Source: a virus
DNA: 64,000 nucleotides
Direction: 5' to 3' (one strand)
Virus record (IMG/VR): IMGVR_UViG_3300023504_000391
Span: 51,299 to 115,298 of that record
The position numbers and the translations under genes are program-made. How positions within the stretch are numbered: position 1 is the first letter of the stretch; every line of letters starts with the position of its first letter. Below, in pieces: positions 16,705 to 37,135 of the stretch. The notes below the pieces were generated by a model, which was given only the letters and a program-made list of their open reading frames with translations, was not told the DNA's origin and made no database searches.

Positions 16705-16971
16705 ATGGAAATAATAATGGATAAAGTGACAACATTAAGTGATGATCAATACAATAAAATTGCAAAAGGTAGTAGACTTGGGAAAGATATAAGAGAAGCT
16801 TTAGGCATTCCTGAAACTAAGAAGGTTAATATTGGTGACACAGTATGTACAGTAGGTCAACCATCAAACACAAAGGATGTTTTTAAATACACGTGGAACA
16901 ATAGAAATATTTTTTATGTTGTGATTAATCCAATGGGTGACAAGATGGCAATGTGTTATTCAATTTATTAA
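16705..16971 (+). CDS. hypothetical protein
   Basis: GAAAGGAGAA RBS. Confidence 0.6.
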   Translation: MEIIMDKVTTLSDDQYNKIAKGSRLGKDIREALGIPETKKVNIGDTVCTVGQPSNTKDVFKYTWNNRNIFYVVINPMGDKMAMCYSIY

Positions 16972-16983
16972 AGAGGTGATACT

Positions 16984-17289
16984 GTGAAATATGCAAATAG
17001 ATTAACAGATGAAGAATTAAGAGAAATTTATAGTTTACTTACTGATTCAGATAAAATTAATGAATTAAATATTACAAGAAATGAAAATTCTATCGACCTT
17101 GAAGGCTACATAGAAATTCTTGAAGAAGACTCAAATGAAACTCTTACTGTTTATGATGATTATACAATTGCAGATTATAATGTAAAAGTTTATCAACATT
17201 CGGGGTATTGTACATTAGATTATAGGAAATGGATGTATAGAAAGTTCGGCGATGAGTATACAAGAGATTATTTGCTCAATAATTATTAA
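16984..17289 (+). CDS. hypothetical protein (GTG start)
   Basis: AAAGAGGTG RBS before GTG 16984. Confidence 0.5.
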   Translation: MKYANRLTDEELREIYSLLTDSDKINELNITRNENSIDLEGYIEILEEDSNETLTVYDDYTIADYNVKVYQHSGYCTLDYRKWMYRKFGDEYTRDYLLNNY

Positions 17290-17317
17290 GTATTAAACAA
17301 AAGGAAAAAACTACAAG

Positions 17318-17506
17318 ATGAAAAAAGAAATTCAATTATTTATAACAATACCAGAGTTATTATTGGTTGGCAACAATGATGGTATTATGTATGATAGAGA
17401 CAAATTTTTAGTTGATGGTATTCAAAGAACGACAATATTGAAAAAGTTTTACAAAAAACATTTAGTAAAATCAATTTTGGATAATAAATTTGACAAGATA
17501 TTATAG
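17318..17506 (+). CDS. hypothetical small protein
   Basis: AAAGGAAAAAA upstream; 62 aa. Confidence 0.45.
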   Translation: MKKEIQLFITIPELLLVGNNDGIMYDRDKFLVDGIQRTTILKKFYKKHLVKSILDNKFDKIL

Positions 17507-17569
17507 TTTCTAAGTATAAGTGTTAATTGAAACCTAAGTTTATTATGATTATGGAAAGGAATGATGAGA

Positions 17570-17989
17570 ATGGAAATAAATAAAATGATATGCGAACATT
17601 GTGGAAAAGTATTTTATAGTAAATACTATACTGGTGGATATATAGATCATTATGAGAATTTTTCAAGATATAAAAATAATTTTGGGAAAGATATAAATGG
17701 AGACATAAGAGAAATTTGTTTCAGTGGAAATGATTTAAGAGATGATAAAGACATAGAAGAAAGATTGAATTGTTATCTTAAATGGGATAATATTCCTGAT
17801 GGTGTTAAAAATCAAGTAAAAGAAAAATGTGATTTTTTGATTAATAAAATATTAAAAGCTAAAGAACAAGCTGAAGAAATTGTATCTGATATGACTATGC
17901 TAGAAAGAAAATATCTTATTAAGGCTGCCGAAGAAAATTGTAGCACACCTTTTGGAAATGAAGATGATAAATTATGGGATGAATTTTAA
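17570..17989 (+). CDS. hypothetical zinc-ribbon protein
   Basis: ORF 17561..17989; CEHCGK N-terminal motif; GGAAAGGAATG RBS. Confidence 0.55.
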   Translation: MEINKMICEHCGKVFYSKYYTGGYIDHYENFSRYKNNFGKDINGDIREICFSGNDLRDDKDIEERLNCYLKWDNIPDGVKNQVKEKCDFLINKILKAKEQAEEIVSDMTMLERKYLIKAAEENCSTPFGNEDDKLWDEF

Positions 17990-18119
17990 CTTTTAAGATT
18001 GTTAAGAAAGAGGTATTTAGCAGTTAAATATAACTTATAAAAACATATAAAAAGTGTTGATTTTTATAACTTATATATTGATAGAATAAAGTATAAACAT
18101 TATAAGGAGGATTTACTTT

Positions 18120-18282
18120 ATGAGTAAATATTATTCTATCAATGAGTTTTCAAAGATATTAGGTGTATCAGCACAAAACATTACGAAATTGGGATAAGAA
18201 TGGAAAACTACGTCCTCGCCATACATCTAGTAATGGGTATAGGTATTATTCACACGGGCAATTAAATCAAGAAAACTTGTAA
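18120..18282 (+). pseudogene. remnant of an IS607-family TnpA serine recombinase (HTH domain only; +1 frameshift in an A-run near 18167-18170; catalytic domain absent)
   Basis: MSKYYSINEFSKILGVSAQNITKLG* continues in the next frame as LRNWDKNGKLRPRHTSSNGYRYYSHGQLNQENL*. I recall LRNWD..G.L.P.HT..NGYRYY as the IS607 TnpA N-terminal signature. Confidence 0.55.
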
Positions 18283-18312
18283 GAGAACTTATAGAGGATG
18301 GAGGTGAAAAAG

Positions 18313-19488
18313 ATGATAAAAACAATTCGAGTAATGTTACTTCCAAATAACAAGCAAAAGACTAAACTTTTCCAATATGCTAATACTGCCAGATTTGCTT
18401 ATAATTGGGCTTTAAGTAGAGAAAAAGAAAACTATAAAAATGGTGGCAAGTTCATATTTGATGGAGATTTGAGAAAAGAATTTACACAGTTGAAGAAAAC
18501 TGATAAATATTCTTGGTTAAATAAAATCTCTAATAATGTAACAAAACAAGCAATTAAAGATGCTTGTAACGCATATAAGAGATTTTTCAATGGATATTCA
18601 AAAGTTCCTAAGTTTAAAAGCCGTAAGAAATCAACACCATCTTTTTATCAAGATAATGTAAAAATTCAATTTTCTGATACTCATTTAAAAGTTGAAGGAT
18701 TTACAACTTCTAAAAAGAAGGATAAACAGAAATTAAATTGGATTAGACTTGCAGAACATAATAGAATACCTACAGATTGTAAATACACGAATCCTCGTAT
18801 CAAATATGATGGATTAAACTGGTATCTTACAGTGGGTATTGAATACAAAGACTCTACTATTGTCCCATCCAATGAAGGAATTGGAATAGATTTAGGAATT
18901 AAAGATTTAGCAATATGTTCTGATGGTAATAAATATCAAAACATTAACAAGACACAAAGAGTTAAGAAGTTAGAAAAACAAAAACGCAGGTTACAGCGTT
19001 CTATATCCAGAAAATATGGAAAAAATAAGAAAGGAGAAAGTTACTGTAAAACAAAGAATGTAATCAAAAAGGAAAAACTTTTATTAAAATTAAATCATAG
19101 ACTAACAAACATTCGTCAGAACTACATACATCATATAACTTCAGAGATTATAAAACGAGAACCAAGTTTTATTGTGTTAGAAGATTTGAATGTAAGTGGA
19201 ATGATGAAGAATAGGCATTTATCCAAAGCAGTACAACAACAAGGATTTTATGAAATTAGACGACAAATTGAATATAAGTCTGTTTGGAATAATATTTTAG
19301 TAATCATTGTAGACAGATTCTTTCCAAGTTCTAAATTATGTAGTTGTTGTGGAACAATCAAGAAAGATTTAAGTTTATCAGACCGTATTTACAGATGTGA
19401 ATGTGGAAATGTAATTGACAGAGACTATCAAGCATCTTTAAATCTAAAACGATATGGAGAAAATGTTTTAAAACAATCTGTAGTATAA
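18313..19488 (+). CDS. tnpB: TnpB (IS605 OrfB family; RuvC-like nuclease with C-terminal zinc ribbon)
   Basis: GIDLGIKDLA (Asp), FIVLEDLNVSGMMKN (Glu), VIDRDYQASLNL (Asp) plus CSCCG...CECGN zinc ribbon; ATG 18313 after a GGAGGTG RBS. Confidence 0.85.
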   Translation: MIKTIRVMLLPNNKQKTKLFQYANTARFAYNWALSREKENYKNGGKFIFDGDLRKEFTQLKKTDKYSWLNKISNNVTKQAIKDACNAYKRFFNGYSKVPKFKSRKKSTPSFYQDNVKIQFSDTHLKVEGFTTSKKKDKQKLNWIRLAEHNRIPTDCKYTNPRIKYDGLNWYLTVGIEYKDSTIVPSNEGIGIDLGIKDLAICSDGNKYQNINKTQRVKKLEKQKRRLQRSISRKYGKNKKGESYCKTKNVIKKEKLLLKLNHRLTNIRQNYIHHITSEIIKREPSFIVLEDLNVSGMMKNRHLSKAVQQQGFYEIRRQIEYKSVWNNILVIIVDRFFPSSKLCSCCGTIKKDLSLSDRIYRCECGNVIDRDYQASLNLKRYGENVLKQSVV

Positions 19489-19640
19489 CACAATCAAGTT
19501 ATCACAGATATGTACTGATTCGTTAGTCAGGAATTTACGCCTATGGAGAGTACAAGAACTTGTAAGTAGAGGGTTGCAAGCAACCCTCAAAAGCATACTC
19601 ATAGAAGTAGGAATGAAACATAAAAGATAAAATAATTATA
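19400..19640 (+). ncRNA. candidate TnpB guide RNA (omega-RNA) spanning the tnpB 3' end and downstream region
   Basis: Non-coding, relatively GC-rich stretch directly after tnpB containing a perfect 9-bp stem GAGGGTTGC-AA-GCAACCCTC (19569-19588). Confidence 0.35.
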
Positions 19641-19668
19641 ACTTTTTATAAGTTTTCAGTAACGGTGA

Positions 19669-19857
19669 TTGATATTGGAAAAGATTTTAGTAAATAAGAT
19701 TAGATGTAAGAGATGCGGAGATGTTATCGAAAGTAAGACTCAACATCAATTTGTAATTTGTAAATGTGGAGCTGTAGCAATTGACGGTGGACATTACCAT
19801 TTGAGCAGAACAGGAAATCGAGAAGACTGGGAAGAATTAAGCAAAGTTGTGGATTAA
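19669..19857 (+). CDS. hypothetical small zinc-ribbon protein (non-ATG start, uncertain)
   Basis: CKRCGD...CKCGAV motifs. Confidence 0.4.
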   Translation: MILEKILVNKIRCKRCGDVIESKTQHQFVICKCGAVAIDGGHYHLSRTGNREDWEELSKVVD

Positions 19858-19967
19858 TAAGAGGTTATTTTTAAGACAAAGAAATAATCATTTCAACGGA
19901 AATAAACTAATGTGAGAAGCGGGAATTCCTGCTTCTTTTTTAATACAAAAAACGAGGTGGTAAATAA

Positions 19968-20246
19968 ATGTGTAGACATAGAAATAGAAAAAATAACTAT
20001 ATGCAGTTAAGTAGATTTATTTGCTTGAGTTGCTTACATACAGATACGGTAGCAATAAATGGAATTCAAAGAGGTTCTTCCCAAAGAGAATATGGTCATA
20101 TTAAAGATTCTGTTTGTATAAAGTGCGGTGATGTAAAGACAATGGAAGTTCGAGAAAATGATTATTTTCCTGATATTATGGAAATGGCAGTAGAGAAACA
20201 TAATGAATTGTATGATGATAATGTGAGAATAGAAAATTTATATTGA
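19968..20246 (+). CDS. hypothetical zinc-ribbon protein
   Basis: ACGAGGTGG RBS; CLSCLH...CIKCGD motifs. Confidence 0.55.
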   Translation: MCRHRNRKNNYMQLSRFICLSCLHTDTVAINGIQRGSSQREYGHIKDSVCIKCGDVKTMEVRENDYFPDIMEMAVEKHNELYDDNVRIENLY

Positions 20247-21027: not shown

Positions 21028-21987
21028 ATGACAAAAAGAAAAGAGAAAACAGAAGTATATCCATTTTGGAAAATGGAAGACATTAGAAATGTAGTTGAAT
21101 GGTTTGAAAATAACCATGAATGGGATGGTTATCTCATTACAATGTTAGAACTCCTGCTTGGTAGAAGAATTGGAGATACAGTAATGATGAAATGGTCTGA
21201 TATATACTACGAAAACGGAAGCAGAAAAAGAGAAATAAATACAATTGAAGAACAAAAAACAGGAAAAGTTACTAATCTCCCTATAAGTAATACTGTATTT
21301 GAAGCCTTAGATAAGTATTTAGCAAATGTAGATGTTGATATAAAGAAACATTACAGCGAATATATTTTCGAGTATATTCCTAAAACGAACTGGATAAAGA
21401 GAAAAGGCTTGGATATATACAGTAAAAACGATATAGAACTTTGGTGTAAAGCGTTAAATAAGACTATATCAGAAGATAGAAAAGAGAAAATAATCAAAGA
21501 CTTTAATAAACAGCAAAGATACTTATCTCTTGGAGATTATCTTTATTATGTAGTCGAATATAACGATGTTGTAAAACAGCAGACAGAGGTTTACAGAAAG
21601 AAGTTAAACAAAGCAGTTAAAGCAGCGAATATACAATACGCTGTAAGCACTCACTCTCTTCGTAAGAGTTTTGGTTACTGGATTCATAAGACACATCCAT
21701 TTGACCCCGATTGTTTGTTATCATTGCAGAAACTGTTTAATCATACAGATTTGCAAATCACTATGAATTACATCGGTTTAACAGAAGAGAAAAATAGACA
21801 GTTGATTGATGACCATGGTGAGTTTATCCACAATGTATTGGCTGGTAAAGGTGATGAAATAGTCAAGAATATGCCTGTTATCTCCTTAAAATCTGATGAT
21901 TTAGGAAAAATTATTAGGTATCTTACTGATGATGTAGATAAGTATCAAACAGCTATAAATATGGCGAATAAACTCAGGATAGTATAA
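21028..21987 (+). CDS. tyrosine site-specific recombinase / integrase
   Basis: C-terminal catalytic motifs (..THSLRKSFGYW.., ..LFNHTDLQITMNYI..) consistent with the R-H-R-Y tyrosine recombinase fold; RBS GAAGGGCG. Confidence 0.85.
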   Translation: MTKRKEKTEVYPFWKMEDIRNVVEWFENNHEWDGYLITMLELLLGRRIGDTVMMKWSDIYYENGSRKREINTIEEQKTGKVTNLPISNTVFEALDKYLANVDVDIKKHYSEYIFEYIPKTNWIKRKGLDIYSKNDIELWCKALNKTISEDRKEKIIKDFNKQQRYLSLGDYLYYVVEYNDVVKQQTEVYRKKLNKAVKAANIQYAVSTHSLRKSFGYWIHKTHPFDPDCLLSLQKLFNHTDLQITMNYIGLTEEKNRQLIDDHGEFIHNVLAGKGDEIVKNMPVISLKSDDLGKIIRYLTDDVDKYQTAINMANKLRIV

Positions 21988-22018
21988 AAATTATAAAATA
22001 TGAAAGGAAATGTTTGTT

Positions 22019-23122
22019 ATGGGCATACTAAAGAAAGAACTAAAAAATAATTTCACAATTGTTAACAACTCAATATTAAGAGATATGAATTTAGATATTA
22101 AATCAAGAGGTTTGCTTATAACAATGTTAAGTTTGCCATCTGAGTGGGATTTTTCTATTAATGGATTAAATCAAATTTTACCAGATGGTAGAACAACCAT
22201 TACAAGTGGATTAAAAAAATTAGAAGAATTGGGTTATTTAATTAGAACTACAATTAGAGATGATAAAGGCAAAATTTTAGATGTGGATTATACACTTTAT
22301 GACGAACCTCAAAAGGCTACTAATTGTAATGATAATAAGACTAATTCCGAAAATACTAATGAAGATAATGTTAATAATAGTGTTAAAAATAATAATACTA
22401 ATGTTAAACAAATCGAAGAAAAAGATGGTGATTTTAATACAAATGATATACATTATGATGATACTAAAAATTTAAATGTGGCTGACAATATTTCGATTGA
22501 AGATTACATAAGCGAAAAAGAAAGTTGTCCTTTGAAAGGTGCAGATTTACTGGTATCTCATCCATATCCTGATTTCCCAGATATGGATAACCAAGATAGG
22601 GGATTTCCTGATATGGAAAACCGCATACAATTAAATACTAAAGAATTAAATACTAAACAATTAAGTATTAAACAATCAATCTATCAACCTAACTATAATA
22701 ATATTAATAACATAAGAGGTGGATTGATAGATAGAGAAAGACAACCAAAGTATGCGGCACAAGATTATATTCGTTTATGTCAAATCATAAAACAAAATAT
22801 AGGTTATAGCGATTTAATAATCTCTTACCCTAACGACAAAGAAATCATTGATGAGATAGTTGAACTCATGACAGAAGTTGTAACTGTTGATAGCACAACT
22901 TATATGATTTCTGGAGTGAAATATCCAAGTACAATTGTGCAACAAAGATTCTGGAAGTTGAAATACGACCATATAGAGTATGTGATAGTGGCGTTAAAAG
23001 AAAATCCAACTAGGATTCAAAATATTAAAGCTTATTTAATTGCAATGTTGTTTAACTCTTATACTTCTAGTCATAACTACTGGCAAGCTAAAGTAAGTGC
23101 AGATATATATGGGCGAAAGTAA
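22019..23122 (+). CDS. RepA_N-like replication initiator / replisome organiser (winged-helix N-terminal domain; Asn-rich low-complexity linker)
   Basis: N-terminus FTIVNNSILRD..LDIKSRGLLITMLSLPSEWDFSINGL...LKKLEELGYLIR resembles the Firmicute RepA_N domain. Confidence 0.6.
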   Translation: MGILKKELKNNFTIVNNSILRDMNLDIKSRGLLITMLSLPSEWDFSINGLNQILPDGRTTITSGLKKLEELGYLIRTTIRDDKGKILDVDYTLYDEPQKATNCNDNKTNSENTNEDNVNNSVKNNNTNVKQIEEKDGDFNTNDIHYDDTKNLNVADNISIEDYISEKESCPLKGADLLVSHPYPDFPDMDNQDRGFPDMENRIQLNTKELNTKQLSIKQSIYQPNYNNINNIRGGLIDRERQPKYAAQDYIRLCQIIKQNIGYSDLIISYPNDKEIIDEIVELMTEVVTVDSTTYMISGVKYPSTIVQQRFWKLKYDHIEYVIVALKENPTRIQNIKAYLIAMLFNSYTSSHNYWQAKVSADIYGRK

Positions 23123-33822: not shown

Positions 33823-33894
33823 TAGGGCTATCGCCAAGCGGTAAGGCACAGGGTTTTGATCTCTGCATCCATCGGTTCGAATCCGATTAGCCCT
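33823..33894 (+). tRNA. tRNA-Gln (anticodon UUG), CCA not encoded
   Basis: Manual cloverleaf: acceptor AGGGCTA/TAGCCCT, D-arm GCC-AAGCGGTAA-GGC, anticodon stem CAGGG/CTCTG with loop TTTTGAT, T-arm ATCGG-TTCGAAT-CCGAT. Confidence 0.8.
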
Positions 33895-33925
33895 GTTATT
33901 TACAGTAAGAAAGGAGAATAAGAAA

Positions 33926-36493: not shown

Positions 36494-37135
36494 ATGACAG
36501 TAGAAAAAATGACAATCCATAAAGCGCTTGCAGAATTAAAACTTATGGATGACAGAATTATTTCTGCAATTAATAATGGTGTTTATTGTGTAGCAAATAA
36601 ACATTCTAATGAAAAGATTAAAGGTGTTCCAGTTAAGGAATATGAAGGTGTTATGCAAGGTTGTTACGATAAGGCTACAGACCTTATTAAAAGGAGAAAT
36701 GCTATTAAAAGAGCGGTTGTTTTATCACATGCCGTTACAAAGGTTTTAGTCAATGATGCAGAATACACTGTGGCAGAAGCTATTGAAATGAAAAATCATG
36801 GTGTAGAGTTTGACGAAAGAATGCTTTGGGCATTGAAGCAATATTATGATAAGGCACAAGCTGAAATTCTCAAACAGAATGGTGATGACCTTGAAAAGCG
36901 AGCAGAACAGTATGTTATTGGTATCTATGGTTCTAAAGAAGGCAAGACTAATACAGATGATTTTGAAAAAACAAAGAAATATTTTATTAATGCAAATTCA
37001 TATGAGTTAGTTGACCCTATTAAGATTTTAGACAAGATTAATATACTAGAAGAAAAGATTGCTTCTTTTAAAGCAGAAATAGACTCTGCACTTTCAGTTA
37101 GTAATGCTATAACAGAAATTGAAATTAATTACTAA
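36494..37135 (+). CDS. hypothetical protein
   Basis: AAAAGGAGAG RBS. Confidence 0.65.
   Translation: MTVEKMTIHKALAELKLMDDRIISAINNGVYCVANKHSNEKIKGVPVKEYEGVMQGCYDKATDLIKRRNAIKRAVVLSHAVTKVLVNDAEYTVAEAIEMKNHGVEFDERMLWALKQYYDKAQAEILKQNGDDLEKRAEQYVIGIYGSKEGKTNTDDFEKTKKYFINANSYELVDPIKILDKINILEEKIASFKAEIDSALSVSNAITEIEINY

Follow-up and report, generated by a model that had tools for sequence, protein, structure and literature searches.

Analysis of a 64,000-nt stretch of viral DNA (IMG/VR record IMGVR_UViG_3300023504_000391, positions 51,299-115,298; hereafter the window, to which all coordinates refer) indicated that the 1652 bp from position 18014 to position 19665 are, to judge from their anatomy, a non-autonomous insertion sequence (IS) of the IS607 family, with a dead tnpA and with both ends, tnpB and the guide-RNA gene intact. 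The phage that carries the element is a large one of gut Firmicutes, and the insertion lies in the region of the replication module. The TnpB and guide RNA of the element probably form a functional module that cuts the allele of the same phage locus lacking the insertion, and the element would in this way behave as a homing element. A first-pass annotation of 18120-19640 had proposed that an IS607 element has decayed here while its TnpB stayed intact and nuclease-competent, and that a guide-RNA structure lies downstream of it. The core of that reading is correct, and the annotated interval lies inside the element, which extends about 106 bp further to the left and 25 bp further to the right.

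The evidence that carries the homing reading comes from related phages in which the same locus is uninterrupted. The predicted 20-nt guide, TGATTGATATTGGAAAAGAT, corresponds to the flanking DNA that follows the right end of the element (19666-19685, + strand), where it overlaps the start codon of the downstream gene; the sequence occurs once in the window, with no second occurrence at up to 3 mismatches. The first-pass annotation had called for the 3' flank to be used in looking for related phages in which the target is uninterrupted; this search recovered AGAGG followed by a 20/20 match to the guide in three contigs, namely L090, L175 (from a 247-kb contig) and L176. In these three, and in a fourth contig whose target matches the guide at 19/20 positions (L092), the target is preceded by ...ATTAAAGAGG, and AAAGAGG directly precedes the uninterrupted target in all four. 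A fifth contig (L089) carries ...GGAGG before a target that matches at 17/20 positions. The guide thus matches the element-free allele next to the putative target-adjacent motif (TAM) in L090, L175 and L176, and with one mismatch in L092, as is expected of a homing element of the OMEGA type (from obligate mobile element-guided activity).

In their flanking genes, these element-free phage relatives show 84-99% identity. The route to the empty sites was the 62-aa DUF7695 protein encoded downstream of the element, which was searched in IMG/VR, and then a 24-mer in metagenomes. An exact 23-mer representing the empty joint, including the window's own left flank, had no match in IMG/VR because the sequence upstream of AAAGAGG is not the same in the element-free relatives. 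The upstream 142-aa gene led to the relatives L085 and L087, in which unrelated genes follow it and no empty site is present.

Comparison with related copies fixed both boundaries of the element. The match to full-length copies inserted elsewhere begins at the base following a GG, which places the left end (LE) at 18014, behind the flank ...AAGAAAGAGG. The left flank AAAGAGG (18007-18013, + strand) holds the putative TAM, AGAGG (18009-18013), and the GG core (18012-18013). The LE itself (18014-18119, + strand) is non-coding; subterminal repeats of the TTATAAAAA type lie in it, as does the tnpA ribosome-binding site. At the other side, all 39 copies compared are the same up to ...CAGTAACGG and diverge at the next base; the terminal sequence common to all of them is ...TTTTCAGTAACGG, and its occurrence in 37 different contexts fixes the right end (RE) at 19665. 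The terminal GG (19664-19665, + strand), the core dinucleotide of the serine recombinase, forms the end of ...AACGG. IS607 elements are defined by GG ends and by the absence of terminal inverted repeats and of a target-site duplication (PMC13565253). The element in the window has the GG terminus and is inserted directly downstream of GG, and the empty sites contain a single GG.

The left flanks of about 30 family members conform to RRRGG (GGAGG, AGAGG, GAAGG and GAGGG), and AGAGG is a frequent natural left flank in this IS607 subfamily. The TAMs determined experimentally for 23 IS607 TnpBs are AG-rich (AGGAG and GAGGG), and the TnpB of ISFba1 tolerates no single TAM change (PMC11061315), while the TAM of an IS607-family element of Clostridium botulinum is TGGG and ends in a strictly required GG (10.1101/2023.11.20.567912). 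The AG-rich flank AGAGG abuts the left end of the present element but differs from the experimentally defined AGGAG and GAGGG. The sequence AACGG at the RE and the putative TAM AGAGG differ at position -3, which is the position that separates self from target in the C. botulinum element (10.1101/2023.11.20.567912).

Analysis of the tnpA region revealed a pseudogene (18120-18365, + strand) composed of a part coding for a MerR-type helix-turn-helix (HTH; 18120-18271) and a 3' stub (~18276-18365). The open reading frame (ORF) that begins at 18120 encodes MSKYYSINEFSKILGVSAQ and then reaches a stop. One extra A is present in the run at 18175-18178, where two related copies have AAA and the window has AAAA, and its removal restores ...TLRNWDKNGKLRPRHTSSNGYRYYSHGQLNQ. 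The corrected peptide matches Pfam MerR (E 1.3e-14) and MerR_1. Alignment to L002, which encodes a 221-aa TnpA, and to L003 mapped a second lesion, an internal deletion of ~420 bp with its junction at ~18272-18275, by which the whole catalytic domain, including the GYCRVSS serine region, was lost. The last ~90 nt of tnpA (~18276-18365, ~30 codons) are kept and overlap the start of tnpB, and the tblastn matches on the window cover TnpA residues 1-21, 19-50 and 187-219. The first-pass annotation had described a MerR-type HTH readable only with a -1 correction in the A-run and a missing serine-recombinase domain; comparison with the full-length copy bears out both, and the 3' stub had been overlooked.

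A full serine-recombinase TnpA (MerR-like HTH plus catalytic domain), as expected of IS607, is thus missing from the window copy. Since the corrected remnant shows 81-90% identity to the N-terminal part of a complete TnpA from the same subfamily, the 221-aa protein of Enterocloster phage CB457P1, the copy is best classed as a derivative of IS607 and not as an autonomous member. The position of tnpB downstream of and overlapping tnpA is that seen in the full-length copy L002.

The possibility that both tnpA lesions are sequencing or assembly errors in what is really a complete IS607 element was weighed, given that the frameshift lies in a short homopolymer (AAAA). An independent 132-kb IMG/VR contig with the element at the same site (L005/L088/L091; IMGVR_UViG_3300029215_000002) carries the same extra A and the same deletion; relative to the window its tnpB has 55 differences and its downstream gene 18, and a 420-bp deletion is no homopolymer error. 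Such an artefact is extremely improbable. Because the independent contig carries the identical frameshift and deletion, the lesions are real and ancestral and the frameshift is not a read error. Programmed frameshifting was also considered for tnpA and rejected, as no slippery heptamer is present, the A-run is just four nucleotides long and, in any case, the catalytic domain has been lost.

The element had been described as transposition-dead. With the GG core and the two ends preserved, the term is too strong; the element is non-autonomous and could in principle move by means of a TnpA supplied in trans. No second copy of the element and no intact TnpA were found in the window by tblastn, and the window gave a single hit to the guide-RNA motif RAGATH-18. 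Two copies of the family, L010 and L019, occur together on another 132-kb viral contig (IMGVR_UViG_3300032038_000015, at 57-64 kb and 29-36 kb); a full 221-aa tnpA is present in one of them and no tnpA in the other, and such a pair of autonomous and non-autonomous copies is the arrangement needed for mobilisation in trans.

The tnpB gene (18313-19488, + strand) encodes 391 aa from the conserved MIKTIRV start, within a frame that is open from 18298 (396 codons), and its ATG at 18313 is preceded by GGAGGTG. The deduced protein showed the Pfam architecture HTH_OrfB_IS605 (PF12323), OrfB_IS605 (PF01385) and Cas12f1-like_TNB (PF07282). The closest solved structure is that of the IS607 TnpB of ISFba1, from a Firmicutes bacterium (8IAZ chain A, E 1.7e-81 over residues 3-380), and ISDra2 TnpB came next in the list of structural homologues (~1e-43). 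Cleavage by ISFba1 TnpB requires D194, E290 and D371, the 8IAZ structure itself carrying D371A (Ren et al. 2024, PMC11061315). Alignment to 8IAZ showed that the corresponding residues of the window TnpB are D (GIDLG), E (LEDLN) and D (DRDY), and a zinc ribbon of the type CxxC...CxC is present (CSCC...CEC); the earlier statement that TnpB retains all three RuvC catalytic residues and the zinc ribbon is confirmed. With its length, its intact D-E-D triad and its zinc ribbon, the protein conforms to the IS607 TnpBs of ~330-433 aa. The closest bacterial TnpBs, at 80-83% identity, are those of Lachnospiraceae and related Clostridia.

The ratio of nonsynonymous to synonymous substitution rates (dN/dS) of tnpB is 0.14 against the orthologous L005 copy and 0.11-0.16 against relatives. 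The tnpB differences between the window and L005 are unevenly distributed, 45 of the 55 falling inside 18567-18888 (tnpB codons ~85-192), a 320-nt tract with ~14% divergence in an element that is otherwise nearly identical between the two. This clustering is the reason why the tract looks like a patch of recombination or gene conversion and not like steady divergence; no donor for it was found among 170 loci, the best match being 89%. The tract includes the residues aligned with the TAM-contacting region of ISFba1.

The predicted scaffold of the guide RNA (reRNA, also called omega-RNA) was placed at 19475-19665 (+ strand), a length of ~191 nt that ends in ...CAGUAACGG and would begin close to the stop codon of tnpB, its 5' end being set by analogy with the 187-nt ISFba1 scaffold. 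The covariance-model search for omega-RNA families proposed in the first-pass annotation returned a strong match to RAGATH-18 (RF03064) at 19540-19613 (+ strand; 65.3 bits, the gathering cut-off being 44.9; E ~3.1e-12), both in a permissive Rfam scan over 17900-20000 and in a scan of the whole window at the gathering threshold. RAGATH-18 forms the core of the 187-nt reRNA scaffold of IS607 TnpB, at positions -51 to -122 from the guide, and this reRNA carries a 20-nt guide taken from the flank (PMC11061315); the motif is no orphan any more. The distance from the end of RAGATH-18 to the right end is 52 nt in the window and 50 nt in ISFba1. Of 17 related tnpB loci, 16 gave a RAGATH-18 hit at threshold, and three loci devoid of the element gave none.

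The GC-rich hairpin reported earlier at 19569-19588 (+ strand) is real and is the apical stem-loop of RAGATH-18, where it is part of a match far beyond chance. Its sequence is a 9+2+9 palindrome that folds as an 8-bp stem with a 4-nt loop, CAAG. The proposal that it fits an omega-RNA scaffold holds for the RAGATH-18 core, but the hairpin is only the tip of a scaffold of ~190 nt. Alignment of the last 200 nt of 39 distinct copies gave a consensus structure of 45 pairs, 24 of which show compensatory changes, and structural conservation downstream of tnpB is therefore present, as the annotated guide-RNA structure demanded. The flanks of RAGATH-18 (~65 nt on the 5' side and 52 nt on the 3' side) are conserved and covarying in these copies, and the apical stem is the most variable part, with UA, AU, GC and CG pairs at alignment columns 132-150 and heavy covariation. 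The scaffold folded as a single sequence gave z = -2.69.

The scaffolds of the window and L005 differ at one position. The last hairpin of the scaffold has its apical loop enlarged by an 8-nt insertion (position approximate, ~19629-19637, + strand) that is specific to the lineage, being found only in these two; at the same spot L063 has 4 and L067 has 17 additional nt. The corresponding loop of ISFba1 forms the functionally important pseudoknot PK2 (PMC11061315).

The anatomy of the element, its family membership, the structural conservation of its RNA and the perfectly matching natural targets are compatible with the following course of events, which is deduced from the homologous ISFba1 TnpB and C. 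botulinum element and in which expression, cleavage and homing are predicted steps. The element would be transcribed together with the surrounding + strand phage genes, and TnpB would bind the ~190-nt scaffold, with its RAGATH-18 core, that ends at the GG of the RE, the transcript running ~20 nt into the flank to supply the guide. The resulting ribonucleoprotein (RNP) would cut DNA in which an AG-rich, GG-ending TAM (here AGAGG) stands next to the 20-mer, that is, the same locus without the insertion. The phage's own copy would be spared because the guide-matching DNA there follows AACGG, which is not a TAM. A double-strand break in an element-free genome would then be repaired from an element-bearing genome, which could belong to a sister phage infecting the same cell or be a sister replicon once a TnpA acting in trans has caused excision, and the element would be kept or spread. 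Restorative homing of this kind is the known logic of OMEGA elements (PMC13565253; 10.1101/2023.11.20.567912). Promoter-like sites in 17900-19950 numbered 13, which is not above the 11.0 expected from shuffled sequence. In a scan of the same interval no terminator was found between tnpB and the downstream gene, the sole terminator-like site (19914-19937) lying after the DUF7695 gene.

A simpler account would be that of an inert relic, a recently disabled IS in the course of decay in which tnpB and the RNA gene are intact only for lack of time. The tnpA gene is already destroyed, and the divergence from L005 must be very recent, with no differences in the LE (100% identical), the tnpA remnant, RAGATH-18 or the guide; the lineage-specific insertion in the scaffold and a TAM unlike the tested ones would also suit a decaying copy. 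The family as a whole fits this account poorly, since tnpB is intact in 67 of 74 assessable viral relatives while tnpA is full-length in 20 of the 74. Among the 67 relatives with intact tnpB, tnpA is full in 19, partial in 7, reduced to the 3' stub in 5 and absent from 36. Loss of full tnpA with intact tnpB is the condition of the majority (48/67), and TnpB kept without TnpA in cis is the rule among viral relatives. For IS607 loci in general, 20% without TnpA and 30% of TnpAs as pseudogenes have been reported (Ren et al., PMC11061315).

Among the copies devoid of tnpA (L015, L020, L007/L021 and L029) the distance from the left end to the tnpB gene downstream of it varies widely, which suggests that the tnpA deletions arose independently and that TnpB was selectively retained. 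A dN/dS of ~0.11-0.16 for tnpB and the covariation of the RNA scaffold also argue against a relic, and experiments on an IS607-family element have demonstrated that its retention depends on TnpB (10.1101/2023.11.20.567912). We consider an inert relic unlikely. A different internal deletion was observed in the tnpA of L003 (L003:4-447; MT838565.1), in which residue ~82 is joined to residue ~154 in an open 147-aa ORF that keeps the catalytic serine region; being independent of the deletion in the window, it shows that internal deletion is a recurrent route of tnpA decay.

Four points weigh against a functional homing module. The putative TAM is not one of the two determined for 23 IS607 TnpBs (AGGAG and GAGGG), and the 8-nt insertion in the PK2-equivalent loop might weaken formation of the RNP. 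The dN/dS against L005 is no clean test of selection after the decay of tnpA, as 45 of the 55 differences lie in one tract. Finally, the element was found at this site in only one phage lineage, that of the window and L005, a distribution that gives no instance of spread by homing.

The first-pass annotation had left the choice between a domesticated RNA-guided nuclease and a homing selfish element, and of these the second is retained. Domestication would make the module a tool of the phage, either a weapon against sister phages or host DNA or an RNA-guided regulator resembling TldR. The phage location, the loss of tnpA and the existence of phage-encoded domesticated relatives of TnpB (TldR) point in that direction, as does the exact guide match in sister phages, where cleavage would harm competitors with or without homing. 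TldR is a nuclease-dead TnpB, its RuvC site inactivated or truncated, with a host-promoter guide and without element ends. The window copy has an intact RuvC triad, which speaks against a nuclease-dead regulator of the TldR type, and its LE, RE and GG core persist. Its guide is the adjoining DNA, as in mobile IS elements, with no sign of re-targeting and no other guide match in the window. For these reasons domestication is not supported, and we regard it as very unlikely.

The insertion point was analysed with respect to the downstream gene, which encodes a 62-aa DUF7695 protein (19669-19857, + strand; TTG start at 19669 or 19675; Pfam PF24749, E 1.4e-25). The uninterrupted empty-site sequence AAAGAGGTGATTGATATTG is the Shine-Dalgarno sequence and start codon of the DUF7695 gene. 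The element has therefore split the ribosome-binding site of this gene, AAAGAGG being the 5' half of its Shine-Dalgarno sequence. This holds for the subfamily: of 37 distinct contexts, 26 have a start codon 4-17 nt past the RE that opens an ORF of 40 aa or more, and for positions drawn at random from the same loci the figure is 11.5%. Examples of RE flanks near start codons among the loci L001-L084 are L002:4388-4400, L010:4347-4360 and L045:4346-4356. The IS607 subfamily appears to use Shine-Dalgarno sequences (RRRGG) as TAM and target and thus appears to land just upstream of start codons, co-oriented with the gene, and the RE (...ACGG+TGAT) seems partly to rebuild the ribosome-binding site. 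No statement that IS607 TAMs coincide with Shine-Dalgarno sequences was found in the literature searched.

Three small genes upstream of the element (16984-17289, 17318-17506 and 17561-17989) are present in the window and L005 and absent from L090, L092, L175 and L176. In the latter four contigs the DUF7695 gene directly follows the homolog of 16705-16971, and the ribosome-binding site AAAGAGGTGAT (window 16972-16982) marks both junctions. Homing into the element-free genomes would have to co-convert the genes in 16984-17989.

Comparison with known systems showed the closest likeness to the TnpB-reRNA systems of ISFba1 and other IS607 elements (PMC11061315; 8IAZ). Shared features are a TnpB of ~390 aa with the same domain order and RuvC triad, RAGATH-18 directly downstream of the stop codon within a ~190-nt scaffold, a guide taken from the flank past the RE, an AG-rich putative TAM at the left end, an origin in gut Firmicutes and a TnpA that is often a pseudogene. 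The window copy differs in its putative TAM, AGAGG in place of AGGAG or GAGGG, in the 8-nt insertion in the loop of the last hairpin, in its large internal tnpA deletion and in having a phage as host replicon. The TnpA(S)/TnpB pair of the C. botulinum IStron (Zedaveinyte et al., 10.1101/2023.11.20.567912) resembles the element in its strict GG core, in a scaffold ending ...CGG, in a putative TAM that ends in GG and equals the transposase target, and in the distinction of RE from putative TAM at -3. TnpB of C. botulinum promotes retention by cutting the empty donor joint (10.1101/2023.11.20.567912). That element, unlike the present one, contains a group I intron, and its TAM is TGGG. Identity of the window element as an IStron was rejected, as its left end measures only 106 bp and no Rfam group I intron match was obtained, either in the permissive scan over 17900-20000 or in the gathering-threshold scan of the whole window.

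The copy in phage CB457P1 (OP172753.1, 90.5-92.4 kb; both genes annotated 'hypothetical protein') belongs to the same subfamily and shows 77% DNA identity over tnpB. It is likewise phage-borne, has the identical N-terminal TnpA sequence MSKYYSINEFSKILGVSAQ (start MSKYYSINEFSKILGVSAQTLRNWD) and ends in ...CAGTAACGG. Unlike the window copy it has an open 221-aa tnpA with the catalytic serine region, another insertion site and another guide. The predicted outcome in the window is also that of free-standing phage homing endonucleases (T4 Seg/Mob) and of a plasmid TnpB gene drive (PMC13565253; PMC11870625), in which a nuclease encoded beside its own insertion site cuts the element-free allele of a co-resident genome and repair copies the element, possibly with its neighbours. 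Recognition differs from that of Seg/Mob in being effected by a predicted RNA guide and TAM and not by protein.

The phage character of the window was evident from genes for DNA polymerase, a DnaB-like helicase, primase, a RecJ-like exonuclease, a Sak4-like annealing protein and a replication initiator, all on the + strand. Four phage records, among them that of Enterocloster phage CB457P1, share the DNA of the element. A tyrosine-recombinase gene (21028-21987, + strand; Phage_integrase, E 1.1e-15; 69-88% identity in related phages) lies ~1.4 kb downstream of the element and is directly followed by a replication-initiator or DnaD-like gene (22010-23122, + strand). The window also contains a tRNA gene (33824-33895, + strand; Rfam tRNA, 60.2 bits) and a second orphan structured-RNA motif, RAGATH-27 (RF03100; 37161-37244, + strand; 97.4 bits against a cut-off of 76.1). 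RAGATH-27 begins 26 nt past a 213-aa ORF (36494-37135) and is followed by ~550 nt, up to 37798, without an ORF of at least 50 aa. In another viral contig, HEARO RNA (the guide RNA of IscB, RF02033; L013:1169-1389, + strand; 128.6 bits) was found ~1.6 kb upstream of the IS607 tnpB, so that some phages of this group have OMEGA nuclease systems of two kinds.

For IS605, homing by TnpB has been demonstrated in chromosomes and in plasmids. Earlier literature mentions TnpB genes in phage genomes, and no demonstration of phage-to-phage homing by TnpB was found in the literature searched. We put forward, tentatively and as something that may well prove wrong, that the TnpB-guide RNA pair acts both as an RNA-guided homing drive and as an exclusion weapon between co-infecting sister phages, cutting at the ribosome-binding site of the DUF7695 gene, with repair copying the element together with the genes in 16984-17989 and with Shine-Dalgarno sequences serving as TAM.

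The element belongs to a thoroughly characterised kind and is non-autonomous rather than domesticated; it adds one copy to a family of which more than 10,000 loci have been described, a structure has been solved and the mechanism is known. For that family, insertion into ribosome-binding sites, as seen in 26 of 37 contexts, suggests why the TAMs look like Shine-Dalgarno sequences. The value of the present copy is that one phage locus is available both with and without the element, the guide matching at 20/20 positions, and these matched alleles make phage-to-phage homing by TnpB directly testable.

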